Source: a virus. From it: a DNA stretch of 64,000 nt. The stretch covers positions 2,242 to 66,241 of the IMG/VR virus record IMGVR_UViG_3300005323_000002, one strand, 5' to 3'. Both the position numbers and the translations under genes were made by a program. The notes below the pieces were generated by a model. The model saw only the letters and a program-made list of their open reading frames with translations, did not search any database and was not told the DNA's origin. Positions 70-59,829 of this stretch are shown here, one piece after another; positions within the stretch are counted from its first letter, which is position 1; every line of letters begins with the position of its first letter.

Positions 70-468
70 ATGCTCGCCCAATGGCGTGCTGCAAAAACTG
101 CACCGCAGCCAAGTAATACAACGAGTGGGTTCAAGAGATCATCGACAGTGCACCAAATGGGGCCCTGGGAAGAACTATCAGAAAATGGTGGAGCGGCTGA
201 TATGACCAACCGTGACTCCGAGTCCCGGCGCGTCTATCGTGATCTGCTGCCCCTCATTCCTGCCGGTGAGTTCCGATCGGCTGATTTCATCGGCCAGATC
301 GAGAACGCGAGCCAGAGCAGGATCTCTGGCCAACTCATGCACATGGAGCACCGTGGTCTGCTGCTCTCCAGGAGAGTCAAGGAAAAGCGAGCGCGAGGGC
401 ACGGAGAGAAGCACGAGATCAAGATCTACAGGAGATCGGCGAGATTTCCACCAGGGGCAAAGGCATGA
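70..468 (+). CDS. Hypothetical protein, probable C-terminal winged HTH
   Basis: ORF coupled to the next gene (ATGA); segment ...SQSRISGQLMHMEHRGLL...IKIYRR resembles wHTH; start uncertain. Confidence 0.45.
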   Translation: MLAQWRAAKTAPQPSNTTSGFKRSSTVHQMGPWEELSENGGAADMTNRDSESRRVYRDLLPLIPAGEFRSADFIGQIENASQSRISGQLMHMEHRGLLLSRRVKEKRARGHGEKHEIKIYRRSARFPPGAKA

Positions 469-1106
469 GCCGCAAGACCTTCGACAGCTCGGAATACCAC
501 TGGGCGAGGGCCAACTTTGATGGCTATTGCCTCGGATGTGGAAAGAAGATCGGCTTCACCAAGGCACTCATTCTCACCAAGAGCGGATATTTGAGGAACT
601 CCGATCCGCCAAATAGCCTGATGTGTTGCGATCATAAATGTGAGGTGGCTTTCGTCGAGCGCACGGTCCTGGATTGGTCCAAGATCCGGGAACGAGTCAT
701 GGCGCGGGATTCCTACACCTGTCAGGATTGTGGTCGCAGCCGCGGCAGCACCACAACAATATTTCGATTTGTCAGGCGGTCCAATTTCCGACTCTCACAG
801 CCATTCCCAAAAGATCCCAGACGTTGGTGGAAATTCGTGGGACGCTCCGAGGTGGAAGTCCCCCTGGAGCTCGAGGTCCACCACATCATACCAATATCTG
901 AAGGTGGATCGGAGTTCGACCTCAACAACCTCGTTACGCTATGCTTCGATTGCCATCACCTGGGCCGGCACGGCTCTAAGGCCCCAACACCCGAAGAGAT
1001 AGCGGAGAAGAGGGTCGAGGAGCGCAGGAAAGCAGAGCAGGAAAGACTACAGGTCACGAGGGCCCGGCACAAATGCCTGGATAATTTTGCAGAGGTCGTG
1101 CCATGA
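465..1106 (+). CDS. HNH endonuclease
   Basis: IRERVMARDSYTCQDCG ... LEVHHIIPISEGGSEFDLNNLVTLCFDCH motif. Confidence 0.9.
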   Translation: MSRKTFDSSEYHWARANFDGYCLGCGKKIGFTKALILTKSGYLRNSDPPNSLMCCDHKCEVAFVERTVLDWSKIRERVMARDSYTCQDCGRSRGSTTTIFRFVRRSNFRLSQPFPKDPRRWWKFVGRSEVEVPLELEVHHIIPISEGGSEFDLNNLVTLCFDCHHLGRHGSKAPTPEEIAEKRVEERRKAEQERLQVTRARHKCLDNFAEVVP

Positions 1107-1239
1107 TTCGCATCACCCACCAGACGAGAGAGCGCGTCGTCCGGCCTCAGCCCATCCCGCACGTCCGGGCCCCTATCCATCCGCGGGTTTGGCGGGCCGA
1201 TATCGAAGCCGTGCACCGATTACTAAGGAGGTCTGGGAA

Positions 1240-12403: not shown

Positions 12404-12821
12404 TCCTCGCCACAGAATACTTCTGCCCACATTTCTATCATAGTCCGCCAATTCCTATTTTCAGAGATCTAAAGCAGAGAGACTAATCGGCGGAAAGCTG
12501 CAAAAAAGTAAAATTCTAAATGGAGAATTAATATGGTAGAAACACGCGCGGACTCTCTCAATGCTATATTAATTGAGATCGAAGAGAAGGAAAAAAAGTC
12601 GCGCGAGTTGTACGAAGCTGCTGAGAGGCAACTAAGTTATGCCACTCGCTTCACGAAAATCTGAGCAGGGGTTGGGCAATGAAGAAAACCGATCGCGTCG
12701 GCAAAGCAGCTTCACCCGTGGCCGGGGGCATCTACCCACAGTTCCACCAGAGCCCCAAAGCCGAAGCAAACCGGCATGAAGCGACACGATAAGTATATAT
12801 GCTATTGAGCCAATCATTATC

Positions 12822-12925
12822 TGCTGGCTAGGGATCGGCTGATCACTGATCCCGAAGGGGCGGTTTCCTGACCGCCAGCCAGCACTTAGAGCTTTTCAGG
12901 GATACATGGCAGGAGATGTAGTTAA
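12822..12925 (+). ncRNA. Conserved structured leader RNA, copy 1
   Basis: Three-way junction (TGCTGGC/GCCAGCA; GGGATC/GATCCC; GGCGGT/ACCGCC), loop TTCCTG, downstream TCAGG, SD hairpin; TATA at 12794. Confidence 0.8.
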
Positions 12926-13714
12926 GTGAGCAAGAGGATAGACATACCATATGATATTCTGTATGATTATTACGTCGTTCAGCGGCTTACTCTCAGACAA
13001 TGCGCAAAGAAGCTAGGAAGAAGCCACATCGAACGGTGCTTGCGCAGGGCAAATATTCCGCTCAGGCCAATGCGGCGAACCCCAAACAGAATCTTAACAA
13101 AAGAATGGCTTCAAGAAAGGTATATCGGACAGGAATTGAGCCTCTCCGAGTGCGGTGAATTGGTTGGCTGCAGCCCCAAAACAATATTGAATGCTCTAAG
13201 AAGACATAACATAGCTACAAGGCCTTTTCAAACTCCACCCACCGGGGCAACAGACAAATGGCTAAAAGAGTACTATGTGTGTCAGCAATTATCTATTTCA
13301 CAATGCGCTAAACTATTAGGATGCAATGATGAATCAATACGAAATGCGCTAAAGAAGTATAACATCACGGCTAGGCCATATGTCCGAGACGGACCTAGAA
13401 ACCACCAATGGCGCGGAGGCCTATCATTCCTGCCCTACTGTCCAAAATGGACAGAAAAACTCCGCGAATCGATACGAGATGAATATGGCCGCAAGTGCTA
13501 CTTATGCCACACAACAGAAGCAGAAAATAAGCGCAAGCTCTCGGTGCATCACGTAAATTTTGATAAGATGGCTGGGTGCTATGGCAAACGGTGGAACTTA
13601 TTGCCATTATGTCAAAAATGTCATAACCAAAGCAGTAATCATAGATTTGAATATTTCAACCTGCTCGTAAATCACTGGGCTTACAAATACATCCAAGACG
13701 GCATAAGCATTTAG
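12926..13714 (+). CDS. HNH endonuclease with three N-terminal HTH repeats
   Basis: Three repeats L...Y....LS...CA..LG.....I..AL; C-terminal WRGG..PYC...KCYLC...SVHHVN...LCQKCH. Confidence 0.85.
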   Translation: MSKRIDIPYDILYDYYVVQRLTLRQCAKKLGRSHIERCLRRANIPLRPMRRTPNRILTKEWLQERYIGQELSLSECGELVGCSPKTILNALRRHNIATRPFQTPPTGATDKWLKEYYVCQQLSISQCAKLLGCNDESIRNALKKYNITARPYVRDGPRNHQWRGGLSFLPYCPKWTEKLRESIRDEYGRKCYLCHTTEAENKRKLSVHHVNFDKMAGCYGKRWNLLPLCQKCHNQSSNHRFEYFNLLVNHWAYKYIQDGISI

Positions 13715-13729
13715 TTACTGGGGGGTTCA

Positions 13730-15217
13730 ATGGCAAAAGACAATCGCAACAAGGTAGCTAAGGCCGCCTATAATCCCTATCCAAAATTCAATTCATCCCC
13801 ACGCGCCTTGAATCGGCAACAGTTTGGCCGATCTGGGCAACAATATTTTTTGCCGGGTTGGATAAAACGCGACTACCTCCCGGAGCTGCAAGGCAGAAAT
13901 CTATTCCTCGCCTATGAGGAGATGGGCACCGACGCCTATTGTGGTGCTGCCCTCAACGCTTACTCTGTCTTCATCAGGCGGGCAAAATGGCATGCAGATC
14001 CAGTAATCGATGAAAACAAGGAAAACGGGTCGTTTGAGTTCCTAGAAAACAATATGAATGATATGCAGCATAGCTGGCAAACTTTCGTGGCCACTGCTGC
14101 AAAACCGACACTTCAATTCGGATTTTCTAGCTTCGAAAAAGTCTATAAGCAGCGAGAAGGTGAGCAGGACGATGATCGCTACTCATCCAATTACGACGAT
14201 GGTGCCATCGGATGGGCAAACTTTGCGTTTAGGTCTCCTGACTCTATTTTACATTGGGATTATGATCCAATAGATGTGACTAGACTGAGGGGCTTTACTC
14301 AGATCGCGGCACCTGACTACAAAACCACATTTATTCCCGTAGAGAAACTTATCCTCATCCGGGCGGAGCCGGGCAAGGACAACCCAGAAGGCCGATCCAT
14401 CTTACGGGGTGCTTGGCGTGCTTGGCGCACCAAAAAGGTAATGGAAGACATCAGAAATGTATCAGCAGATCGAGGTGGTGCAGGAATCCCGTGGGCAGAG
14501 GTCCCGGCAAACATCGCCAATGCGCCTCAGTATGTTGCTGCAGATCCAACAAATCAAGCGGCAATAGATGCAATGGCATCGTATCAAAGCTTAGTGGATA
14601 CGATGACCAATATAAATCAAGACGCACAGAAGTGGGTCATCTCCCCCCAGATCTGGGACGCGAACGGGCAACCTCAGATCAAGTTAGGATTCTTGCAGCC
14701 CGCCCAGGGTGCTGATATTATTGGGCACATCACCGCTGCGATAGATGCAGAGGCAAAGGCAATCCTGATCTCGACGATGAGTGAGTTCATGGCTCTTGGC
14801 ATGGGGGGCACAGGATCGTTGGCATTGAGTCGCGACAAAACCGACAATTTCACGTTAGCTGTTGATGCAACACTCACCGCTTTTATGGAGAGCATCAACC
14901 AGCAAGCCGTTCGCCAACTCTTCCGCCTCAATCCACAATTCGAGTTCGAAAAAGGCAAGCCCAAGCCTCGTATAGTCTACGATCCCATAGTGCCGATCAG
15001 CACACAGGACGTAGTTGCCATCTTGGGCCTCTTCGAGAAGAGTGGCTGGGATCTCAGCAAGCAGGCAGGTATCCGGGACACTATCATCTCCAACTTGGGT
15101 CTGCCTTCGTATGTCGAGCAGGAGGTAGACGAGAAGCTCCAAGAGCACGGTGACGCGCCAATCGAGAGCTTGCTCGACGGCAAGAGTGCGCTGGACGCGA
15201 TACTAGGGGCAGCTTGA
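13730..15217 (+). CDS. Portal protein
   Basis: 495 aa after terL; FGFSSFEKVY, IPVEKLI, NPEGRSILRGAWRAW, GSLALS motifs of Mu gp29/DUF935-like portals. Confidence 0.9.
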   Translation: MAKDNRNKVAKAAYNPYPKFNSSPRALNRQQFGRSGQQYFLPGWIKRDYLPELQGRNLFLAYEEMGTDAYCGAALNAYSVFIRRAKWHADPVIDENKENGSFEFLENNMNDMQHSWQTFVATAAKPTLQFGFSSFEKVYKQREGEQDDDRYSSNYDDGAIGWANFAFRSPDSILHWDYDPIDVTRLRGFTQIAAPDYKTTFIPVEKLILIRAEPGKDNPEGRSILRGAWRAWRTKKVMEDIRNVSADRGGAGIPWAEVPANIANAPQYVAADPTNQAAIDAMASYQSLVDTMTNINQDAQKWVISPQIWDANGQPQIKLGFLQPAQGADIIGHITAAIDAEAKAILISTMSEFMALGMGGTGSLALSRDKTDNFTLAVDATLTAFMESINQQAVRQLFRLNPQFEFEKGKPKPRIVYDPIVPISTQDVVAILGLFEKSGWDLSKQAGIRDTIISNLGLPSYVEQEVDEKLQEHGDAPIESLLDGKSALDAILGAA

Positions 15218-15225
15218 AAAAAAAG

Positions 15226-15426
15226 TCAGACTCCTCGCAAACTCTCACGGGTCATCGGTATCTTACCAGATAGCACCTGGGACCAGAAAGCGACTTCGGT
15301 CGTGATCTGTTTCTGATCCGCTACGGCTTCATTTTCTCGCTCAATAGCATCCAGCATACTACCTGCCTCCAAACGCAGTAGCCTGGATCGGATGTAACGA
15401 CGATCTTCTTCAGTTAGGTCGGTCAT
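15226..15426 (-). CDS. Hypothetical protein (reverse-strand moron)
   Basis: SD AGGTGA on the minus strand. Confidence 0.5.
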   Translation of the reverse strand: MTDLTEEDRRYIRSRLLRLEAGSMLDAIERENEAVADQKQITTEVAFWSQVLSGKIPMTRESLRGV

Positions 15427-15444
15427 GTTTCACCTTTGGCTTCT

Positions 15445-15684
15445 TCAAGGATATATGTTCACGCGTTTTACTCTTGCCAAATGGTCTGCTATGTTCGCTT
15501 TTGGTAACTCGGGCATACCAATTATGACGCCTTGTGATATATAATGATTCATAATATCAATCGCTATCGGGTCGGCATCAATTCCGTTTTCGACATCTGA
15601 TTGAATCAGATCCCAAATAAGGCGAGCTCCGAACAGGTCCAATAACGTTTTTTTGCCTACCCAGTATTCATATTCATTCATCAT
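15445..15684 (-). CDS. Hypothetical protein (reverse-strand moron)
   Basis: 79-aa ORF in the minus-strand cluster. Confidence 0.5.
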   Translation of the reverse strand: MMNEYEYWVGKKTLLDLFGARLIWDLIQSDVENGIDADPIAIDIMNHYISQGVIIGMPELPKANIADHLARVKRVNIYP

Positions 15685-15789
15685 GTCTTAGCCTTCTTGC
15701 TTTCGGCTTCTCTAAGTATCGCTTGCACATCGGGCAGCTCTTTGGCTTCTCTTTGCGTGGCTGCCACTCGTAGCTGCAATGGGGGCAGA

Positions 15790-16077
15790 TCATGCTTTTG
15801 CCAAATCCTCATATGCGCCCGTGCCTAATGTTACTTCGCACCACTCAATATGTCCTGGGAGCATGACGTTCACACAAACAGTGACATGATTGTTTTTCAC
15901 CTCTAGCCACTCGTCATGTTTAGCCTGATGAGTTCGGTCAAGCACATCTCGGATGGCCTGCATTTGGATAATTGCCTTCGCCAATCCATCCGTTGCATTA
16001 TCACAGGGCATTGATATACCCAAAGATGCGAGCCAGGCAAGCGTGCGATCCTGGGTAGCTTTATCATATTCATCCAT
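15790..16077 (-). CDS. Hypothetical protein (reverse-strand moron)
   Basis: Minus-strand TTTATAT box near 16100-16108 and GAGGT before ATG. Confidence 0.55.
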   Translation of the reverse strand: MDEYDKATQDRTLAWLASLGISMPCDNATDGLAKAIIQMQAIRDVLDRTHQAKHDEWLEVKNNHVTVCVNVMLPGHIEWCEVTLGTGAYEDLAKA

Positions 16078-16115
16078 ACCTCTTAATCATCATCCTCATC
16101 ATATAAAGGTGTCTC

Positions 16116-17111
16116 ATGAACGCAGAACTCTTTCAGCTCATCCGAGAGACGGGCTACCTGAGCGATGCCAAGCTCTCCGATCAAGCCCGCTATGATTTCC
16201 TCACTAGCGACTTCTGGCAGCAGGCCAAGGCACTGGGTTACAACGTCGTCGAGCTGAAGCGCCTGCTCTGGAAGATGTCGGGCAGGCCGATGGAAGCACT
16301 CATCGCAGCTCTGCCGGATGCTCCAATCCAGAAGGCCGTCCGCGGCACCGAGAAGGAGAAGGACCCCCGGAAGCGGATCAAGGAGACCGCCGCCGCTATC
16401 GCCATGCTCTATAAGAAGGCTGAGAAGGACATCCGGGAAGCGATCAGCCGCAACATGGAGCAGCCCGACAGGATGCGGGCTGAGACTGGCCGCATAAGGC
16501 GCACTCTCTTAGCACAAGCGGCCTCCTGGCTACAAGTGAGCGTTCCGGGTTTGTATGTCACTGGTGCGAAAGCTCCTTTTCTCCAAGGAGCGCATGCAAA
16601 AGCAGCTCAATCAATGGCCACACAAGAATTTAACAGATTTAAAGAAATAGACTCACAAATATCAAGACATATAGAGGAAATTATAGGCGAGTCAGAAAGA
16701 CGTAGGGCAAAGGCAACTTTATCACAAGTCAAACCCGACTATACTGGTTTGCGTGGTGACATCGTGGGTCACAAAACGATAGACGGGAAAGAATTAGGAT
16801 TAAGCAGCTACATTGAGATGCTGGCTATCAATGTGGCAAGAAACGTCTTTAACGAAGCGGTTGAGAATGCTGCCCGAGAAAATCAAGAAGACCTCATGAG
16901 GATTTCACGCGAAGTCAGATCTAATAGTTGTCAATCGTGTCGCGATTGGGCGGGTCGTGTAATTAGCATCACAGGCCGAACTCCTGGGTATCCAACTAAA
17001 TCAGAAGCGGAAGACGCCGGAATCTGGCACCCACACTGCATACATTTCTTAGAGAGGTTGGATGAAGATAGATATGCGGGCACCGGGCATTACATCGGCG
17101 GTGCGATATAA
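16116..17111 (+). CDS. Minor capsid / head morphogenesis protein
   Basis: After the portal; C-terminal SCQSCRDWAGRVIS..G..PGYPT...GIWHPHCIH. Confidence 0.85.
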   Translation: MNAELFQLIRETGYLSDAKLSDQARYDFLTSDFWQQAKALGYNVVELKRLLWKMSGRPMEALIAALPDAPIQKAVRGTEKEKDPRKRIKETAAAIAMLYKKAEKDIREAISRNMEQPDRMRAETGRIRRTLLAQAASWLQVSVPGLYVTGAKAPFLQGAHAKAAQSMATQEFNRFKEIDSQISRHIEEIIGESERRRAKATLSQVKPDYTGLRGDIVGHKTIDGKELGLSSYIEMLAINVARNVFNEAVENAARENQEDLMRISREVRSNSCQSCRDWAGRVISITGRTPGYPTKSEAEDAGIWHPHCIHFLERLDEDRYAGTGHYIGGAI

Positions 17112-17165
17112 GATCAGTAACAGCAGAAGCAATACTTATATATGGCATTACGCTAAATATTGATC

Positions 17166-17252
17166 GTTGGCTAGGGTAGCTCCCGAAAAGTGGTTTTCCT
17201 AGACCACCTGCCAACATAAAAACTTCTAGGAACGCTATAGGAGGCGTCAAGT
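17166..17252 (+). ncRNA. Conserved structured leader RNA, copy 2
   Basis: GTTGGC/GCCAAC; GGG/CCC-GAAAA; GTGGT/ACCAC, loop TTTCCTAG, downstream CTAGGAA, SD hairpin ACGC/GCGT; TATA at 17136. Confidence 0.8.
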
Positions 17253-18074
17253 TTGATTCAGTCATGCTTAAATTGTAATAAAGAATTTCACGCTTATCCG
17301 TCTGCGATAAAGCGTGGCCATGCGTTGTTTTGCTCACGAAAATGCCGTGGTGAATATTATCAGGGCGCGCGAAATCCAAACCACAAAGGCGGGAAATACC
17401 TCATATGCGCCCGGTGTGGAAAGAAGTTTTGGGCGCGCCCATGGGAACAAAAGAAAGGTGTAAAATATTGCACACAGGCTTGTTATGACGAAGCGCGTCG
17501 TCCTGGGGGCGCGTGGGCAGAACATAGTGTAAAATGTATCTGCCACCAATGTGGAATCGAGTTTTATGCATTTAGATCAGAGGTCGATAATAAGGGCAGG
17601 AAATATTGCTCGCTCAATTGTTACCATCTCTCACAGGATAAACGCGTAGAGTGCACATGCACATCATGTGGTAAGTCGTTCCGAGTTACAAAAAGTGCAC
17701 TCAAATACGGTCGCGGCAAATTCTGCTCACCGTCTTGTGCGAATGCGCTTGAGAATAACCCCGGCTGGTTAGGTGGAAAAAGTTTCGAACCATATTGTCA
17801 TAAATTCAATCATGCACTAAAAGAATATGTAAGAGACAAATTTGGTAGGCGTTGTTTTGTGTGCGAGTCGCCCGAAATCAGACGATGCCATTCTATACAC
17901 CACATTGATTATAATAAGTTGCAGGGGTGTAAAGGAATGACGTGGGCGTTAGTCCCGCTCTGCGATAGTTGTCATATGAAAACAAATCGCAACCGTTGGC
18001 ACTGGTTCAATCTACTAATTCATTATTGGGCGATGAATCCTGATATCAATTTCAATTTGGACTGTTCTACATGA
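17253..18074 (+). CDS. HNH endonuclease with four zinc-finger repeats
   Basis: Four CxxC.K.F...(F/Y)C..xC repeats; C-terminal WLGG..PYC...CFVC..HHIDYNK..GC.G..W.L.PLCDSCH. Confidence 0.85.
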   Translation: MIQSCLNCNKEFHAYPSAIKRGHALFCSRKCRGEYYQGARNPNHKGGKYLICARCGKKFWARPWEQKKGVKYCTQACYDEARRPGGAWAEHSVKCICHQCGIEFYAFRSEVDNKGRKYCSLNCYHLSQDKRVECTCTSCGKSFRVTKSALKYGRGKFCSPSCANALENNPGWLGGKSFEPYCHKFNHALKEYVRDKFGRRCFVCESPEIRRCHSIHHIDYNKLQGCKGMTWALVPLCDSCHMKTNRNRWHWFNLLIHYWAMNPDINFNLDCST

Positions 18075-18336
18075 CTTCTGAAGAATACGAGGCCTATCGA
18101 GCAATGGTCGCCCGAAGTAAGGCGCTCGTCGATGAATGGGCCGAGCTACAGGCGCTTGGCCCGGACGCAGAGAAATACTGCTGAAGCGTGGTCTGCTGTC
18201 CGGTCAGGTGAGGCCGGAAAGCTTTGAAGTGCTGATTTTGCATATTACTAATTATCGATTATTGTCTATAAATAATTTACTGATGGTGATTTCTCATGCT
18301 CACAAAATCTGCTTTGAATTATAATGGTGCTAAAAT

Positions 18337-19281
18337 ATGCTTGACTATTCGCAAATCCACACCCCTAAATTAGGAGGTTCAAAAATGCCAGATGATGAAG
18401 AAATACAAGACGACGATGAAGGGATGGAGAAAGGAGCCTCCGATCTCGATTTCGTCAAGGAACGGTTAGCGGACGAGTCCGGGGGCGTGGAGGCACTGAG
18501 CCAGGCCCTTGAGAGCATCCAGGACCCGAAGCTCAAGGAGATCATTGCCGCAATTCACGAAGACGAGGCGAAGCATCAGGCCGCGCTGCAACAGTGGATG
18601 CAGGAGAACGGTGGCGGTGAGGGCGAGGAAGAAGCCCCGGCAGAAGAGGAAGCCGACACCACCGAGAAGGATGAGGGTGGCGACGTTCCTGCGCCAGACG
18701 AGGAAGATCTCGACGAGGACGACGGCGGCAAAGGCGAGCTGATCGATCAGATCCGGGCCATATTGGAAGAGCACGATCCTGAGATGGAAAAGGCCGATGA
18801 CGAGGAAGCACCGCCTGACGAAGAGGACACCGAGAAATCGGACGACGGCGATGAGGACGATAAGCCGGACTTCCTGAAAGAGGATGACGATGAAGAGGAA
18901 GCCGAGAAAGGCTGCAAGAAGTCCTTCCGGGTGCCTATTATAAAGGGCGATCAGCAAATTTGCTATGGAATTGTGTCTGAGCCTGATGTAGTAGATTTAC
19001 AGGGCGATAGGCTCAGTAAATCTGAGATCCGTGTTGCATGCCATAAGTTCATGATGAAATCGCAGCGGATTAATAAGGAGCACAACGGGCCTGCTAAAGC
19101 TGATATCATCGAGTCATATATCGCCCCAACAGACTTCACATGTAATGGGCAAAAGGTCCGTAAAGGATCATGGATCATGGGCGTAAAAGTGCACGATCCT
19201 GAGATATGGCAGGCCATCAAGAAAGGCGAGATTACAGGCTTTTCTATTGCGGGAAATGGCACACGAACCGAGATCGGCTAA
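18337..19281 (+). CDS. XkdF-like prohead protease with N-terminal ferritin-like helices and acidic linker
   Basis: YGIVSEPDVVDLQGD, KEH, ESYIAP, KGSW, IKKGEITGFSIAG; N-terminal EDEAKH; alternative start ATG 18385 with SD AGGAGG. Confidence 0.85.
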   Translation: MLDYSQIHTPKLGGSKMPDDEEIQDDDEGMEKGASDLDFVKERLADESGGVEALSQALESIQDPKLKEIIAAIHEDEAKHQAALQQWMQENGGGEGEEEAPAEEEADTTEKDEGGDVPAPDEEDLDEDDGGKGELIDQIRAILEEHDPEMEKADDEEAPPDEEDTEKSDDGDEDDKPDFLKEDDDEEEAEKGCKKSFRVPIIKGDQQICYGIVSEPDVVDLQGDRLSKSEIRVACHKFMMKSQRINKEHNGPAKADIIESYIAPTDFTCNGQKVRKGSWIMGVKVHDPEIWQAIKKGEITGFSIAGNGTRTEIG

Positions 19282-19321
19282 CGCAATAACCTATATATAG
19301 ATACATCTCCATTAACATCAG

Positions 19322-19411
19322 GCTGGATAGGTCGGCCAACCGAAAAGGAGTTTCCTGACTCCCTGCCAGCACTTAGATCTTTTCAGGAATACATGACAGG
19401 AGATGTAATTT
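19322..19411 (+). ncRNA. Conserved structured leader RNA, copy 3
   Basis: GCTGG/CCAGC; GGT/ACC-GAAAA; GGAGT/ACTCC, loop TTCCTG, downstream TCAGGAA, SD hairpin TACAT/ATGTA; TATA at 19292. Confidence 0.8.
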
Positions 19412-20143
19412 ATGCGGTTCCGGGAAGATATCCCCATTAAAGAAGTTACTCGATTGTATGTTGAAGAAGAAAAATCGGTTGTTCACATCGCGAGATTGTT
19501 TCATACCAGTCCGTCTATAATATGCGATCGGATGGACTTGGCTGGTGCAGCAAGACGACCACTCGTCAGGCATGATGTTTCTGACATCGATATAAAAGAA
19601 ATGTATGTGGGCAGCCAATTATCGATTAGGGCGATATCTGAACGTGTCCAATGCAGTAGGGAGACTGTGCGGTGCCGATTAAAGTCGATGGGAGTAGTGC
19701 TTCGACCAAACACAAAAGAGCACATGTCCGATGAAGTCAAAAAAAGAATCTCGGAGGCAAAAAAAGGTTATTGTCCCTCAGAGTATGCGAGACGAAAGGT
19801 TTCAGAGGCAAACACCGGTCCGGGCAATGGTAACTGGAGAGGTGGAAAATCATATGAACCGTATTGCCCGGCGTTTACTGAGAAACTGAAAGAAGAAGTT
19901 CGGGCGGCATTTCAAAGAAAATGTTATGTTTGCCACACACCTGAGGTGGTAAATGCCAGAAAACTCTCGGTCCATCATGTCGATTATCAAAAATCACAAG
20001 GCTGTAGGGGCCAACGGTGGAGCTTAATACCGCTTTGTAACAGTTGCCACAGCAAAACCAATCGAGATAGATGGTATTGGTTCGCACTATTAAGGGATTA
20101 TTGGATCTATGAACACATAGACTTCAACTCCAACCCCTTTTAA
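19412..20143 (+). CDS. HNH endonuclease with HTH repeats and NUMOD3-like motifs
   Basis: Two HTH repeats, MSDEVKKRISEAKKG, C-terminal WRGG..PYC...KCYVC...SVHHVDY...LCNSCH. Confidence 0.87.
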   Translation: MRFREDIPIKEVTRLYVEEEKSVVHIARLFHTSPSIICDRMDLAGAARRPLVRHDVSDIDIKEMYVGSQLSIRAISERVQCSRETVRCRLKSMGVVLRPNTKEHMSDEVKKRISEAKKGYCPSEYARRKVSEANTGPGNGNWRGGKSYEPYCPAFTEKLKEEVRAAFQRKCYVCHTPEVVNARKLSVHHVDYQKSQGCRGQRWSLIPLCNSCHSKTNRDRWYWFALLRDYWIYEHIDFNSNPF

Positions 20144-20187
20144 CTCGTTTTTATTAAGTTGTTTCAGTTTTTTGATAAGGTGATGTT

Positions 20188-20844
20188 ATGCCGTATGAAT
20201 TGAAAGATTTAGACCTAGACGAAGTCTCGTTAGTCGGTTCTCCGGCTAACAACCGCAAATTCTTGATTTTTAAGTCAATGCAAAAATCCAAGGAAGGTAT
20301 CAATGTGATAAAGACCAAGCCCGCTGGGGCAAGGGCCGGAGCCAGGGCTTCGGTCTCAAAGGCGGATATCCTGGATATAGTCCAGAAGGCCGTCGAGCCA
20401 ATCCGCAAGGAGAACGCAAAGCTGCGTGAGACCCTGCTGAAGAAGGACTACGAGGAGATTGCCAAGTCCCACTTGGGGGCTCTGGGAACTCCTCAGGAAG
20501 GTGCAGAGATTCTAAAGTCTCTGGAAAGCCTGCCTAATGAAGCCAGGGACACGATTCTGAAGGGGCTCAAGCAGGCCAACGCTGCCAAGAAAGAAGCTAT
20601 GGCCGTTCTGGGTACTCAGATGGGCTCTAGCAGGCCCGCACCGGGCAGCGCCACAGCTCAGTTCGAGGCAATCGTTGCCAAGCACGATAACCTCATCCAG
20701 AAGTCTGGCAACGGCCCAATAGACCCCAAGGTCCGCAGGGCAATGGCAGTCTCTGCCGCCACACGGGAGAACGGAAGGCTCGCCAAGGCCGTACTGGCTG
20801 AGGAAAGAGCAGGCGTCGTCCGGGCTCAGATGGGGGTGCAGTAG
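20188..20844 (+). CDS. Scaffold protein with N-terminal protease-type EVSLV..PAN segment
   Basis: MPYELKDLDLDEVSLVGSPAN followed by a helical region; upstream of capsid genes. Confidence 0.7.
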   Translation: MPYELKDLDLDEVSLVGSPANNRKFLIFKSMQKSKEGINVIKTKPAGARAGARASVSKADILDIVQKAVEPIRKENAKLRETLLKKDYEEIAKSHLGALGTPQEGAEILKSLESLPNEARDTILKGLKQANAAKKEAMAVLGTQMGSSRPAPGSATAQFEAIVAKHDNLIQKSGNGPIDPKVRRAMAVSAATRENGRLAKAVLAEERAGVVRAQMGVQ

Positions 20845-42374: not shown

Positions 42375-43385
42375 ATGGGCGTTTGTATGCCGTATAAAGA
42401 TCCAGAAGCAGCTAGGGCATATCGCGAAGCTCATAAAGAAGAAGCACGGACATATAGCCAGGCATATAGGGCCACACATAAAGAAGAATTATCTTTAAGT
42501 AAAAAGATATATTATGAAGAACATAAGAATGAAATTCGACTGAAACATAGAACTTATTATGAATCGCATAAAGAGGAAATAGCAGTCAAAAATAAAGCGT
42601 ATGCGGAAGCCCACTCAGACGAGATCACGGAGTACAAAAAAAGGTGGTCCGATGCGCACAAAGAAGAATTACGCGCAAGGCGCAAAGAAAATTATTCATG
42701 TAATAAAGAAGTTATACTGGGTCGTCAAAAAGTGTATCGTGTCAAACATATTGACATGTATCGGGATTATGGTAAAGCGTATTACTCCTCCCACAGAGAA
42801 GAATGTAGTGCGCGCAGCCACTGTTATTATAAACTTCACCAGGACGAGATAAAACGGCATGTGGCTGCATATCGAGACTCCCAAAAGACAGTCGAGATTG
42901 TTTGCATTCAATGTGGAAAGCACACACATGTCTTGCCCAGGCAATCAGGCAAATTCTGTTCAAACAAATGTGCTCGAATGCATATGGCGGGACCTAACCA
43001 CCCAGGTTGGAAAAATGGAGTCTCGTATGAGCCTTACTGCCCCAGGTTTAATAATACTCTTAAAGAAAAAATCAGAGATGCGTTTGATCGGAAGTGCTTC
43101 TTAAGTGGCATTCCAGAAAATGGCACGAAGTTGTGTATACATCACTGCGATTATTTAAAATCACAGGGATGTCAAGGACAACGATGGAGTTTGTTGCCAT
43201 TAAATACCAGATGGCATGTCAAAACCAATTTCAATCGATGGTACTGGTTTGGTCTTCTGCGCGACTATTGGGCTTATAAATATCTAACATTCCACGGCAT
43301 GGACATTTTTCCTGGCCCGGATAGGACCGCATGGTTGTGGGAGATATATAATAACGCAAGCGATGATTATGAGGGTATCCGATGA
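42375..43385 (+). CDS. HNH-family protein with 15-aa helical repeats and degenerate Zn ligands
   Basis: Repeats Y...HKEE; C-terminal WKNG.SYEPYC...IHHCDY.K.QGC.GQRWSLLPL shared with the other three paralogs. Confidence 0.8.
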   Translation: MGVCMPYKDPEAARAYREAHKEEARTYSQAYRATHKEELSLSKKIYYEEHKNEIRLKHRTYYESHKEEIAVKNKAYAEAHSDEITEYKKRWSDAHKEELRARRKENYSCNKEVILGRQKVYRVKHIDMYRDYGKAYYSSHREECSARSHCYYKLHQDEIKRHVAAYRDSQKTVEIVCIQCGKHTHVLPRQSGKFCSNKCARMHMAGPNHPGWKNGVSYEPYCPRFNNTLKEKIRDAFDRKCFLSGIPENGTKLCIHHCDYLKSQGCQGQRWSLLPLNTRWHVKTNFNRWYWFGLLRDYWAYKYLTFHGMDIFPGPDRTAWLWEIYNNASDDYEGIR

Positions 43386-57409: not shown

Positions 57410-58102
57410 ATGTCCGCTTCTCAACAGCTCAGCATCCAGGATCGGGCCAGGAATGCCAGCATAGTCGAGCAGGTCCGGGAAGCTGCCAGAGACATCGAGC
57501 CTCATGTCTGCCGATGCAGCTCCGAGCAATCCCGCGATCCCGGCGACCTGGCCAAGCTGGCCGGGAAGCTCTGCCAGGTCATGAAGGCCTGCGCGGTGGT
57601 ACCGAAGGATAAGCAGAATCCGCAGCAACACTACAAGTACGCAAGCAGCGATGCGATTCTTGAGCGCGTCAATCCCGCTCTCTGTGATGCGGGCCTGGCA
57701 ACGGTCTGCAATCTGGAAATCCTGGACAGGCAACCAAGAACGACCAGCACAGGCGCAATTTGGGAGCTATGCACGGTCAGATGCAGACTGCTAATCATAG
57801 ACTCTGAAACAGGTGCATCAATAGAGTCAGAAGGCATCGGTCAGGGGTATGACGGTTCTGATAAGGCCTTGAGCAAGGCCCAGACACAAAGCCGAAAATA
57901 TGCCTGGCTTCTCGCTCTGAACATCTCGACCGGGGACGATCCAGAAGGCGATGATCGCACGGATAAGGCCCAGGTTCCCGCGGTGCCGTGCAAGAAGTGC
58001 AAGGGCCCAGCAGCTTACATTGACGACGGTGAGTTTGATGGCAAACCGGTCAAGAGATATTACTGTGAAAAATGCAAAACAGAAACCCGGAGGGAGGCAT
58101 GA
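57410..58102 (+). CDS. ERF-family single-strand annealing protein
   Basis: KDKQN..HYKYASSDAIL..P.L..GL; DKALSKAQT..RKY; TGDDPE. Confidence 0.88.
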   Translation: MSASQQLSIQDRARNASIVEQVREAARDIEPHVCRCSSEQSRDPGDLAKLAGKLCQVMKACAVVPKDKQNPQQHYKYASSDAILERVNPALCDAGLATVCNLEILDRQPRTTSTGAIWELCTVRCRLLIIDSETGASIESEGIGQGYDGSDKALSKAQTQSRKYAWLLALNISTGDDPEGDDRTDKAQVPAVPCKKCKGPAAYIDDGEFDGKPVKRYYCEKCKTETRREA

Positions 58103-58260
58103 CCGCCGATCAGCAGCAGCTCAGCCAGCCCGCCGAGCTGCACCGCTACTGTCTGCGGTGCCACAGGAAACTCAAAGCCGAGCGATCCATGAAGGCCGGA
58201 TTCGGTCCGGTATGCCTGCTGAAGGAAGTGCAGGAACGCAAAGAATTTATGCAGTCATGA
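58099..58260 (+). CDS. DUF6011-like zinc-finger protein
   Basis: CLRCHRKL...S.KAGFGPVC. Confidence 0.7.
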   Translation: MTADQQQLSQPAELHRYCLRCHRKLKAERSMKAGFGPVCLLKEVQERKEFMQS

Positions 58261-59036
58261 CAAGATGTGAGAAAATGTCAGACATTAGTAGTATCGTAAG
58301 ATCTCCTGTCCGAATGGATATAATGCGATACCTCCGGAGCGGTCCCATGTCTGCGGCGGGGCTATCCGGCAAACTGGGGTCGTCACAGTCAACAATCTTA
58401 CATGCAATTGATCGAATGGCCGCGGCGCAGATAGTCGAAAAGTGCGCCGAAAGCTACCGGCTCACGGGCGCGGGATTGGTCCAGGATTCTATTCTTCAAC
58501 AGACCGCAAATGGCCTGGCAGTTCTTGAATCAAATATCGATTTTTGGGCACAGCATGACATCAGTGAAATCCCGTCTCACTTGATGGCCCGGCTGAGTGA
58601 TCTAGAAGGCGGGCATGTCATCTCAGGAGATAGCATCTTCCAGGCACAGCAGATCTTTATAAACCAACTCGCGGCTGCTAAAAAGATCTATGGAGTCTCG
58701 CCCATTATATTTCCGGGATACGTCGAATCGACATTAGCTGCCTGCCAAAACGGCGCAGAAGTTCATCTTATAGTAACCTCCCCCATCCTGGAAATAATGC
58801 GTACAAAAACGGCCACTGCGTTCGAAGCCCTGCAGAAGATCGAGAGCTTCCATCTCTATGAAATCGACACCGCGAAGGTAGCTTTCGCGATTATAGACGA
58901 CGTATTATCGTTCGGATTATATAGATTAGATGGAGAATACGACGCCACAACGGATTTGGGCTGCCCCGGCGAACGTGCTCGTGCGTGGGGATTAGATCTT
59001 TTCCATCACTATCTGAAGAAGGCAACCGCTATCTAA
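58257..59036 (+). CDS. Methanogen-type wHTH regulator (DUF1724/FilR1-like)
   Basis: ArsR-like wHTH, FWAQHDISEIP, FGLYRLDGEYD, AWGLDLFHHY. Confidence 0.85.
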   Translation: MTRCEKMSDISSIVRSPVRMDIMRYLRSGPMSAAGLSGKLGSSQSTILHAIDRMAAAQIVEKCAESYRLTGAGLVQDSILQQTANGLAVLESNIDFWAQHDISEIPSHLMARLSDLEGGHVISGDSIFQAQQIFINQLAAAKKIYGVSPIIFPGYVESTLAACQNGAEVHLIVTSPILEIMRTKTATAFEALQKIESFHLYEIDTAKVAFAIIDDVLSFGLYRLDGEYDATTDLGCPGERARAWGLDLFHHYLKKATAI

Positions 59037-59082
59037 GAGTCAGTAGATCCTTTGCGCGGGGATCTACACGATAAAAGAATTC

Positions 59083-59829
59083 TTGGAAAAACTGAGCACC
59101 AGCTCACTCTGGATAGCCGTCTGTTCATTTTTCAGGCTGGCGTGCCTTGCGCTCATTCTCGGTCTGCCGTTTGATTGGCGCTGCGGTCTTGCCGTCTCGC
59201 TCGCTGCCTTTGGCGTTTATCTGGTCGATAAGGTAAGCGACTCCGCCGAGGACTTGTTAAACACGCCTGGCCGTGCGTGGCTTGCAAAGTATCGCAGAGA
59301 GGCCCAAATATTAGCAATTGGATCTTATGCAGCGGCACTGATCCTAACCGGAGCTCTGGTCGATATCTGGAAGGTGCCGTATCTCTTGGTCTTCGGCTCT
59401 GCGGGCTTCATCTACACCAGGAATATCTGCGGCTTCCGGCCAAAGGATCTTCCGGGTGCAAAGACTGTAATAGTGGCCGGGGCCTCTGCGATCTGCTACG
59501 CCGGTATGATTTCCGGGCCAATCGAGGCTTATGTCCTTGCATTTCTGACGATCGCCATAGATACAATAATCTTCGACTTGCGCGATATTGTGGGCGACCG
59601 TGCGGCAGGCGTCCGAACCTTGCCGGTGCTGGTTGGCCGCAATGGTGTTCTACTGTTGCTTATTGTTTTAGACCTGATAACAGTCGTCATGAGTCCCGCG
59701 ATCGCGACTTATGGGGCCTTTTTAATATGGTTCTTCCGAAAAGAGCGCGATAGCCTCTGCTATGACTATCTAGTGGATGCTTGGATGATGTGGGTGTATC
59801 TAGGCCTGAAGCTCTTGCAATGGGCCTAA
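59083..59829 (+). CDS. UbiA-family prenyltransferase
   Basis: Multi-TM; YLVDKVSDSAEDLLN.P.R and FDLRDIVGDRAAGVRTLPV Asp-rich motifs. Confidence 0.88.
   Translation: MEKLSTSSLWIAVCSFFRLACLALILGLPFDWRCGLAVSLAAFGVYLVDKVSDSAEDLLNTPGRAWLAKYRREAQILAIGSYAAALILTGALVDIWKVPYLLVFGSAGFIYTRNICGFRPKDLPGAKTVIVAGASAICYAGMISGPIEAYVLAFLTIAIDTIIFDLRDIVGDRAAGVRTLPVLVGRNGVLLLLIVLDLITVVMSPAIATYGAFLIWFFRKERDSLCYDYLVDAWMMWVYLGLKLLQWA

Follow-up and report, generated by a model that had tools for sequence, protein, structure and literature searches.

Introduction

In the homing endonuclease genes of T4-type phages (I-TevI, Aeh1 mobE and T4 segB), an RNA structure that hides the ribosome-binding site keeps translation low, according to the review PMC3014915. 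Here we examine a structured leader RNA of ca 90-105 nucleotides (nt) that stands, in three copies, directly in front of HNH-type nuclease genes on a stretch of viral DNA of 64,000 nt, called the window in the following (IMG/VR record IMGVR_UViG_3300005323_000002, positions 2,242 to 66,241). The window makes up nearly all of this 66,241-base record, which has direct terminal repeats. As in the T4-type genes treated in that review, RNA structure is found at the translation start of a selfish nuclease. The hairpins described there are, however, simple and local, with neither a shared family nor a three-way junction, and the control of I-TevI uses a late promoter inside the structure. In the window, the predicted promoter is instead upstream of the whole fold, the Shine-Dalgarno (SD) sequence is found in a hairpin loop, and a distant loop is contested by the SD and by a second site, called the decoy below. 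Nor is the SD or the start codon held in a local helix, as is typical of the T4-type structures. The SD occupies the loop, and not the stem, of a hairpin of 4-5 base pairs (bp), and no conserved helix over the start codon was found in the leaders checked for it, namely copies 1 and 2 and 15 others.

Some riboswitch expression platforms, such as those of the SAM-II and preQ1-II classes, hide the SD in a pseudoknot. The leaders of the window resemble these platforms in that a structured domain is present, a loop or strand pairs with the SD, and an alternative partner is available. They differ from them in that no ligand is suggested, the regulated genes belong to mobile elements, and the cassette is portable and has a promoter of its own.

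The closest described system is int-alpA (Rfam RF02996), which is, to our knowledge, a catalogued RNA without an assigned function. The name implies a setting near the integrase and alpA genes of prophages and satellites, and the motif is attributed to a survey by Weinberg et al. (2017). Its name is absent from the main text of that survey (its supplements lie outside this check). In the literature searched, int-alpA is found in tables only, as an RNA-family entry or as the int-alpA-pri gene order of phage satellites, and RF02996 nowhere. A search on homing endonucleases, the SD, pseudoknots, decoys and archaeal viruses yielded no description of the mechanism proposed here, the supplements of Weinberg et al. 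2017 not being covered.

Architecture and family of the leaders

A sequence-only reading of this DNA had proposed three copies of a pseudoknot-capable leader, each ending at the start codon of an HNH gene. All three are present (see Table 1 for the positions) and fold as described. Each unit consists of a TATA-like octamer, ca 20 non-conserved bases, a three-way junction formed by the helices P1, P2 and P3, a linker, and the hairpin with the SD in its loop, 8-10 nt before the start codon. The three-way junction is the minimum-energy fold in all three copies, and an exhaustive scan of the window with a covariance model, filters off, returned exactly these copies (98, 79 and 61 bits), the next match being at 11 bits. 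The junctions of copy 1 differ from the consensus at two places (GAAGG and CA).

The same reading could not assign the fold to a named RNA family. This was not borne out: the Rfam search, which had been set beforehand as a refutation, returned RF02996, and novelty at the level of the family is thereby removed. With the int-alpA model, copy 2 reaches 39.5 bits and thereby exceeds the gathering score of 35.8, which copy 3 misses with 31.2 bits. Copy 1, which has a long P2 insertion, goes unreported even when E values up to 10 are admitted. The alignment spans all model positions (1-71) and reproduces the junction nucleotides (UA/UAG, GAAAA and CU), the CCU of the P3 loop, and an AGG ca 10 nt after P1, which is the decoy. 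The Rfam model stops at this point, and the SD hairpin is outside of it. Matches to int-alpA were obtained in 8 of 16 related loci at E up to 1, two of them above the gathering score, and 7 of 17 further loci exceed that score, reaching up to 62.4 bits. Most leaders of class A, defined below by their promoters, score near or below it. A model of our own, built from archaeal-virus leaders only, finds a canonical integrase-RNA-alpA locus at 52.8 bits, compared to 37.3 with the Rfam model. Judged by these scores, the leaders of the window are borderline-to-clear members of the catalogued int-alpA family.

They share with int-alpA the three-way junction and its nucleotides, the CCU loop of P3 and the AGG after P1. 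They differ in being encoded by an archaeal virus of methanogen type, behind a predicted promoter with a TATA box and a transcription factor B recognition element (BRE), and before HNH genes. The integrase/alpA setting is thus not the one found here, where the leaders precede HNH genes inside a block of structural genes. The canonical setting is seen in locus L075, with an integrase, the RNA, AlpA (PF05930), DUF3854, and a tRNA-Sec fragment beside the integrase.

In total, 59 distinct leaders were collected. An alignment of the HNH proteins led to 45 viral loci and 12 genome loci. A first covariance model (R1), seeded from copy 2 alone, gave 15 matches below E 0.01, which are the three copies of the window and 12 matches in 12 of the 45 viral loci, the divergent L047 counted; among the 12 genome loci, one (L048) has a leader. 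The second model (R2) was rebuilt from 14 matches. Run over the whole records behind the loci, it gave matches in 10 of 41 records, with four new places. A DNA pattern scan in which only the junction nucleotides and the first loop bases were fixed returned 66 viral stretches; 62 of these were run through R2 (four were omitted as contigs already included), resulting in 48 matches at E up to 0.001. Covariance-model alignments were used, since MAFFT put P1, P2 and the junctions of the three copies in the wrong places.

These alignments strongly indicate that the three-way junction and the hairpin displaying the SD are real, with all helices covarying. In the first set, of 17 distinct rows, 96.4% of the cells are paired and changes on both sides occur in 15 of 18 pairs; the observed values are reached by 0 of 500 shuffles, and controls with slid positions give 34-50%. 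The corresponding values for the second set, of 42 distinct rows, are 95.5%, again 15 of 18 pairs, and 35-52% for the slid controls. Here, 0 of 500 shuffles reach the paired percentage or the covariation score, and two counting measures are reached by 10 and 68 of 500. The SD hairpin (helix 4) is 97% paired and covarying. While all stems covary, the junction nucleotides are near-invariant (CUAG / CGAAAAG / CCUG), and large insertions in P2 are tolerated, as in copy 1, L071, L083 and L126.

The long P2 insertions of copy 1 (12837-12847), L071 and L083 have a GGCUGAUC/GUCUGAUC-like core in common, which suggests a recurrent extra P2 module and not a random expansion. Two further candidate features were considered and rejected. 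One is a leader peptide: copies 1 and 3 have an AUG after the decoy, but this is AUA in copy 2, and in most relatives there is none. The other is an extra helix between the linker and the start-codon region, which has 6 bp in copies 1 and 2; most of the 15 other leaders checked have no more than 3-5 bp, and these are not at a consistent place.

Two partners for the P3 loop

The loop of P3 has two downstream partners. Pairing was evaluated in the 57 distinct leaders that have at least 34 nt after P1. Site 1, the decoy, located 8-14 nt after P1, can form at least 5 contiguous pairs with the loop in 56 of these 57 leaders, and site 2, the SD in its hairpin loop, located 20-29 nt after P1, can form at least 5 pairs, likewise in 56 of 57. 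The mean pairing is 7.1 bp at both sites, compared to 5.1 and 5.8 bp with permuted partners, a result not reached in any of 2000 permutations (0/2000). If only Watson-Crick pairs are counted, the means fall to 6.5 and 5.0 bp, and the permuted ones to 3.9 and 3.7 bp (again 0/2000). In the window, the helices of the loop with the decoy and with the SD loop have 7 and 8 bp, respectively, in copy 1 (flanking nucleotides counted), 8 and 7 bp in copy 2, and 7 and 7 bp in copy 3.

The sequence-only reading had noted that loop, decoy and SD change together in two variants. This co-change holds well beyond them, across 26 distinct loop strings in the 57 leaders. Examples of loop/decoy/SD triples are CCUAG/CUAGG/UAGGAG, CCGAG/CUCGG/UCGGAG, CUGAG/CUCAG/UCAGAG and CUUGG/CCAAG/CAAGAG, and further ones are CCGCA/UGCGG/GCGGAG, CGCGG/CCGCG/CGCGAG and CCCAG/CUGGG/UGGGAG. 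Sister copies in one genome match their own sites, as seen for copy 2 of the window versus copies 1 and 3, and for the paired copies in L092, L094, L122 and L079. Since the same loop nucleotides serve both sites, the pairings with the decoy and the SD are mutually exclusive, and the P3 loop can be said to have two exclusive, covarying partners, as originally suspected.

The two sites are not equivalent. Opposite the UU of the loop, site 2 has AG (as GGAG) in 50 of the 57 leaders, while site 1 has AA in 21, AG in 11 and other dinucleotides in 25. This difference in dinucleotide constraints indicates that site 2 must also suit the ribosome and site 1 only the loop. The calculated duplex energies average −9.6 kcal/mol for site 1 and −8.6 kcal/mol for site 2; the two duplexes are within 1 kcal/mol of each other in 18 of 57 leaders, with site 1 being stronger in 26 and site 2 in 13.

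A variation on this arrangement is found in L047, where a leader at 1118-1210 (+) precedes an HNH gene. Its P3 loop, CCAACU, pairs with AGUUGG at the SD, and a decoy is absent. This leader scores 25.8 bits with R1 and is not found by R2. It may represent a simpler, one-site form of the same device, judging from its letters.

Table 1. Coordinates of the promoter, leader and nuclease-gene features of the three cassettes (window numbering).
Feature	Positions	Strand	Remarks
TATA-like box, cassette 1	12794-12801	+	TATATATG; 27 nt before model position 1; conserved GCGACACGATA-like stretch upstream; predicted promoter
Leader copy 1	12821-12925	+	Three-way junction with long P2 insertion, linker with decoy, SD hairpin; R2 61.5 bits
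Copy 1 P1	12823-12828 / 12878-12883
Copy 1 P2	12831-12836 / 12848-12853
Copy 1 P3	12860-12864 / 12871-12875		Loop 12865-12870 (UUCCUG)
Copy 1 decoy	12896-12902	+	UCAGGGA; placed after P1 as in 56 of 57 relatives
Copy 1 SD hairpin	12903-12920	+	Stem UACAU/AUGUA; loop CAGGAG 12910-12915; SD 10 nt before GTG 12926
HNH-type nuclease gene 1	12926-13714	+	262 amino acids (aa); helix-turn-helix repeats and C-terminal HNH-like domain
TATA-like box, cassette 2	17135-17142	+	CTTATATA; starts 29 nt before model position 1
Leader copy 2	17164-17252	+	R2 98.1 bits; ends at TTG 17253
Copy 2 P1	17166-17171 / 17210-17215
Copy 2 P3	17190-17194 / 17203-17207		Loop 17195-17202
Copy 2 decoy	17225-17232	+
Copy 2 SD hairpin	17232-17247	+	SD 17238-17244
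HNH-type nuclease gene 2	17253-18074	+	273 aa; zinc-ribbon repeats and C-terminal HNH-like domain; no Pfam match at E up to 0.01
TATA-like box, cassette 3	19292-19299	+	TATATATA; starts 28 nt before model position 1
Leader copy 3	19320-19411	+	R2 79.1 bits; ends at ATG 19412
Copy 3 P1	19322-19326 / 19366-19370
Copy 3 P3	19347-19351 / 19358-19362		Loop 19352-19357
Copy 3 decoy	19383-19389	+
Copy 3 SD hairpin	19390-19407	+	SD 19397-19402
HNH-type nuclease gene 3	19412-20143	+	243 aa; NUMOD3 and HNH below/near Pfam cut-offs

Putative promoters and the predicted start of the RNA

The upstream regions of 58 leaders could be divided into class A (27 leaders), class B (27) and neither (4). The class A leaders have a TTTAWATA-like box whose first base lies between −30 and −24, in most cases between −29 and −26, two cases being doubtful. 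The class B leaders have a hexamer that resembles a −10 box and begins, in most of them, between −13 and −10; ten agree with TATAAT in at least 5 of the 6 positions, and in several a TTGACA is found 17-18 nt upstream. The leader L072 lacks a TATA box. The spacing in class A, together with the indications for the host given below, supports the proposal of the sequence-only reading that the boxes in the window are archaeal TATA boxes.

The two classes are found in different company. Non-HNH genes of the window are held by 14 of 23 class A loci, most of them only ~3 kb long, with 26-99% identity. Such matches are present in 5 of 22 class B loci and are all weak (24-42%), and the four unclassed loci and L061 have none. 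By this measure, class A leaders are mostly in relatives of the present virus and class B leaders in unrelated phages.

With the textbook spacings of both promoter types, the RNA is expected to start at model positions 1-3, that is, at the foot of P1. In this region, most leaders have a G after a pyrimidine. Transcription therefore probably starts at the foot of P1, as the two promoter geometries are independent of each other and agree.

Two side observations can be mentioned here. In many class A cassettes, the TATA box is preceded by a GCGACACGATA / CGCAATAAC-like stretch (window 12783-12801 and 19281-19299), which may, from its sequence and place, be the BRE plus a further promoter element that travels with the cassette. 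Also, a 287-nt contig from one of four wastewater runs that we guess to be metatranscriptomic (window 12822-13087, ~86% identity) begins exactly at 12822, where the 5' end of leader 1 is predicted; contigs cannot show starts, and this is a hint only.

Nuclease genes and mobility of the cassettes

The three paralogous HNH-type genes are surrounded in the window by genes for the terminase, portal, minor capsid protein and prohead protease. They have an alignable C-terminal domain in common, and their N-terminal modules differ. No RuvC-type family is among the Pfam matches of the three proteins. A fourth paralogue at 42375-43385 (+) encodes 336 aa, without a Pfam match. Its second Cys pair is replaced (LPLNTRWH versus PLCxxCH in the others), and it may on this ground be a decaying copy. 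A fifth, unrelated HNH gene at 465-1106 (+), near the left end (Pfam HNH, E 1.7e-10), has no leader of the int-alpA type.

The proposal that promoter, leader and HNH gene form one unit is supported, and so is the mobility of this unit, as seen from a provirus without the cassettes, from contigs that skip cassette 1, and from varied neighbours in relatives. In the related provirus L145 (see below), a search found no copy of the four window HNH genes and no leader. Around cassette 3, ~935 nt of the window (19269-20203) correspond to ~90 nt in the provirus; elsewhere, the alignment of the two at base level is too noisy. Contigs from three other runs join position 12758 to 13841 by 40 unrelated letters, so that the promoter, leader and HNH gene 1 are gone together, and relatives without cassette 1 therefore exist. 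Other contig joints (17248 to 20017 and 19406 to 13644) were not used; their sides are short, and they are probably due to paralogous leaders or HNH tails of other viruses. The class A cassettes of relatives adjoin different genes of the virus lineage, among them those for the terminase, the protease and the capsid region.

The protease gene and the gene next to it are separate also in the provirus, in different frames and ~73 nt apart (window 18337-20844; L145 16246-17341). Cassette 3 therefore looks intergenic and not gene-splitting.

We now consider the genes that the leaders precede. An open reading frame (ORF) of at least 100 aa is found within a few nucleotides 3' of 51 of the 59 leaders. 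In the archaeal-type group (23 downstream genes), 16 have the HNH motif of the window type, and the Pfam matches are NUMOD3 (9), HNH (4), MUG113/T5orf172 (2) and DUF559 (2). In the other group (27 genes), they are HNH_3 (4) and HNH, integrase, DUF4379, NUMOD3 and AP2 (2 each), with GIY-YIG, His-Me finger and DUF559 occurring once each. With proteins as unrelated as these downstream, binding of the leader by its own product is improbable.

The virus and its archaeal host

The TATA-box reading requires an archaeal host, and this is supported by four lines. The window encodes a protein with a FilR1_middle domain (PF08350, 88 bits), a family that we take to be essentially archaeal. Of the 12 genome matches to the HNH domain, 9 carry archaeal labels. 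A sample of 401 genomes from the phylum that includes a metagenome-assembled genome (MAG) labelled Methanothrix contains homologues of the portal protein in 3 genomes, two of them at 71-73% identity. Finally, one of these two belongs to the provirus L145, which is part of a 148.5-kb contig. The region of this contig at ~10.1-44.1 kb is syntenic with the window from the terminase gene (TerL) to the integrase gene, with 26-79% protein identity, the portal being at 70% and the highest value (79%) being that of a 355-aa structural gene. The rest of the contig has cellular genes, namely CobN, chorismate synthase, MoeA, VorB, GatA and carbamoyl-phosphate synthase, together with an AMP phosphorylase (722 bits versus a cut-off of 535), presumably an enzyme of an archaeal pathway. 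The synteny and the cellular genes on the same contig mean that this lineage of viruses integrates into archaeal chromosomes.

Positions 12700-19500 gave no match in a nucleotide search against GenBank phages, and a tblastn search of TerL and HNH3 against phages gave distant matches only, with no usable host signal. In 105 genomes from the order to which the Methanothrix-labelled MAG belongs (40 candidates scored per genome), the leader was found only in that MAG's own 2.7-kb contig, and the label of the 2.7-kb L048 contig was not relied on by itself. The Methanobacterium MAG label of L075 was dropped as evidence for an archaeal host because of its bacterial-type P4-like integrase, AlpA and tRNA-Sec fragment.

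Two other parts of the window can be pointed out. At 57951-59829 (+), the virus carries two host-like archaeal genes, the first for a regulator that combines HVO_A0261_N and FilR1_middle domains and the next for a prenyltransferase of the UbiA family. At 15226-16077 (−), four small ORFs (66, 79, 43 and 95 aa, without Pfam matches) lie between the portal and minor-capsid genes. Since the latter two are adjacent in the provirus (13076 and 13111 of L145), this block appears to be another insertion, of unknown function.

Proposed mechanism and alternatives

We consider it fairly probable that the leader is a cis-acting translational throttle, or two-state switch, which travels with mobile nuclease cassettes. 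Each unit would be a self-contained mobile cassette, composed of an archaeal BRE/TATA promoter, the leader of ca 90-105 nt and a homing-type nuclease gene. The transcript would begin at the first paired nucleotide of P1, so that the mRNA opens with the three-way junction of the int-alpA family, and the P3 hairpin loop would act as an internal anti-SD. In one state, the loop would form a pseudoknot with the decoy, which leaves the SD free and makes translation possible. In the other, a kissing interaction of the loop with the SD, in the hairpin loop just before the start codon, would keep the 30S subunit out. How the leaders distribute over these states would set a low level of nuclease translation, independent of the site where the cassette has landed, and this distribution may be fixed or be shifted by a signal at the invariant junction. 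Whether translation is lowered or raised by the leader, and any signal that switches it, are matters of inference here.

A number of points weigh against this proposal. The decoy duplex is the stronger one on average, so the default may be ON, and the leader could possibly be neutral or activating instead of repressing. When G-U pairs are allowed, helices of up to 9 bp can be formed also between loops and sites of different classes. The second site is missing in L127:2302 and L134, a single site, seemingly the SD itself, is present in L076 and in the divergent L047, and in L130 and L139 a change in the loop is tracked by the decoy but not by the SD flank. One of the four HNH paralogues of the window (42375-43385) has no leader, and in L075 (1306-1598, minus strand) the leader has retained both its decoy and the CAGGAG hairpin, but the next 196 nt are AT-rich and hold no usable ORF; this element may be the relic of a lost gene or the sign of another function. 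As to the statistics, the fold z-scores of the single sequences are weak (−2.7, −1.8 and −1.4), and the alignments were fitted to their own model. The conservation of the junction is in part by construction, because the pattern scan fixed the junction and first loop nucleotides (the variable loop positions were free), and the shuffle and permutation counts are not probabilities, because the sequences are related.

Another option considered is that the leader is a structural 5' cap or insulator, which guards the 5' end of the mRNA from 5'-to-3' exonucleases or isolates the start from read-through, with a neutral or positive effect on translation. The loop pairings would in that case only compact the leader. 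The predicted start at the foot of P1 implies a base-paired 5' end, the cassettes are inside highly expressed late operons, and the SD is left displayed in its hairpin loop by the on average stronger decoy duplex, all of which would suit such a role. For stability alone, however, there is no need for a second, SD-specific complement that tracks 26 loop variants, or for 50 of 57 leaders to have a match to GGAG that tolerates G-U pairs, and we therefore regard this option as rather unlikely. A riboswitch gated by a ligand or condition, in which a small molecule, an ion or a universal macromolecule at the invariant junction picks the decoy or the SD, would account for the contrast between near-invariant junction nucleotides and covarying stems, and for the closeness in energy of the two duplexes; the layout of anti-SD, SD and anti-anti-SD is also the established one of riboswitch expression platforms. 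The signal would have to be universal, since promoters of the bacterial as well as the archaeal type serve this family. Against this, the gene context, with selfish nucleases and integrases downstream and not metabolic genes, names no ligand, and the junction is small, with a P2 that tolerates large insertions. We find this possibility unlikely.

The fact that Rfam types int-alpA as 'Gene; sRNA' (small RNA), as well as the L075 element with no ORF directly behind it, could be taken to indicate an RNA that is freed and acts in trans on other mRNAs, or a guide or scaffold RNA bound by the nuclease, the latter having been the alternative put forward in the sequence-only reading. However, an ORF abuts 51 of the 59 leaders, the SD matched by a copy is its own, also where its sisters in the genome differ, and no terminator-like feature is present between leader and ORF in the three window copies. 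Furthermore, the downstream proteins are mutually unrelated, and no HEARO/IscB-type guide RNA or other nuclease-associated RNA family was matched in the window at the Rfam gathering thresholds. A scaffold is difficult to reconcile with the same leader standing before unrelated proteins and with a variable loop that matches its own mRNA, and we consider a trans-acting or scaffold RNA very unlikely. That the conserved element acts as DNA, as a homing, recombination or packaging site, would fit with its travelling with mobile nuclease cassettes and marking their 5' boundary. It is nevertheless extremely improbable, since the pairing is strand-specific and kept through G-U pairs, and the element has a constant orientation to the gene and ends at an SD and a start codon.

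Implications

New aspects of the present window are its archaeal setting, the swap of promoters between domains, and the clean empty-site comparisons. We know of no earlier class of structured cis-regulatory leaders in archaeal viruses, although no literature search was aimed at this point, and of very few cis-regulatory RNAs in these viruses at all. A broader proposal, which we advance only tentatively, is that the leader is a portable translation governor used in both bacterial phages, with −35/−10 promoters of the sigma-70 type, and archaeal tailed viruses, with BRE/TATA promoters, in which only the promoter is exchanged while the start is kept at the foot of P1. If this is true, the governor needs only the anti-SD of the ribosome, perhaps in addition to a universal signal read by the invariant junction, and the cassette or the RNA module has moved between viruses of two domains.

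For the int-alpA family, these results provide a concrete, testable mechanism, that is, an internal anti-SD loop shared by a decoy and the SD, and they extend its range to archaeal viruses. They also offer a natural experiment on the 5' end of the RNA, as the spacings of the bacterial −10 element and the archaeal TATA box point to the same first nucleotide. If the ribosome is the only partner, the leader would constitute a compact part for setting translation, with loop, decoy and SD-flank triplets that look freely re-programmable, as the 26 natural variants illustrate. For the viruses that carry these cassettes, the leader may explain how homing-type nucleases stay tolerable at any landing site.

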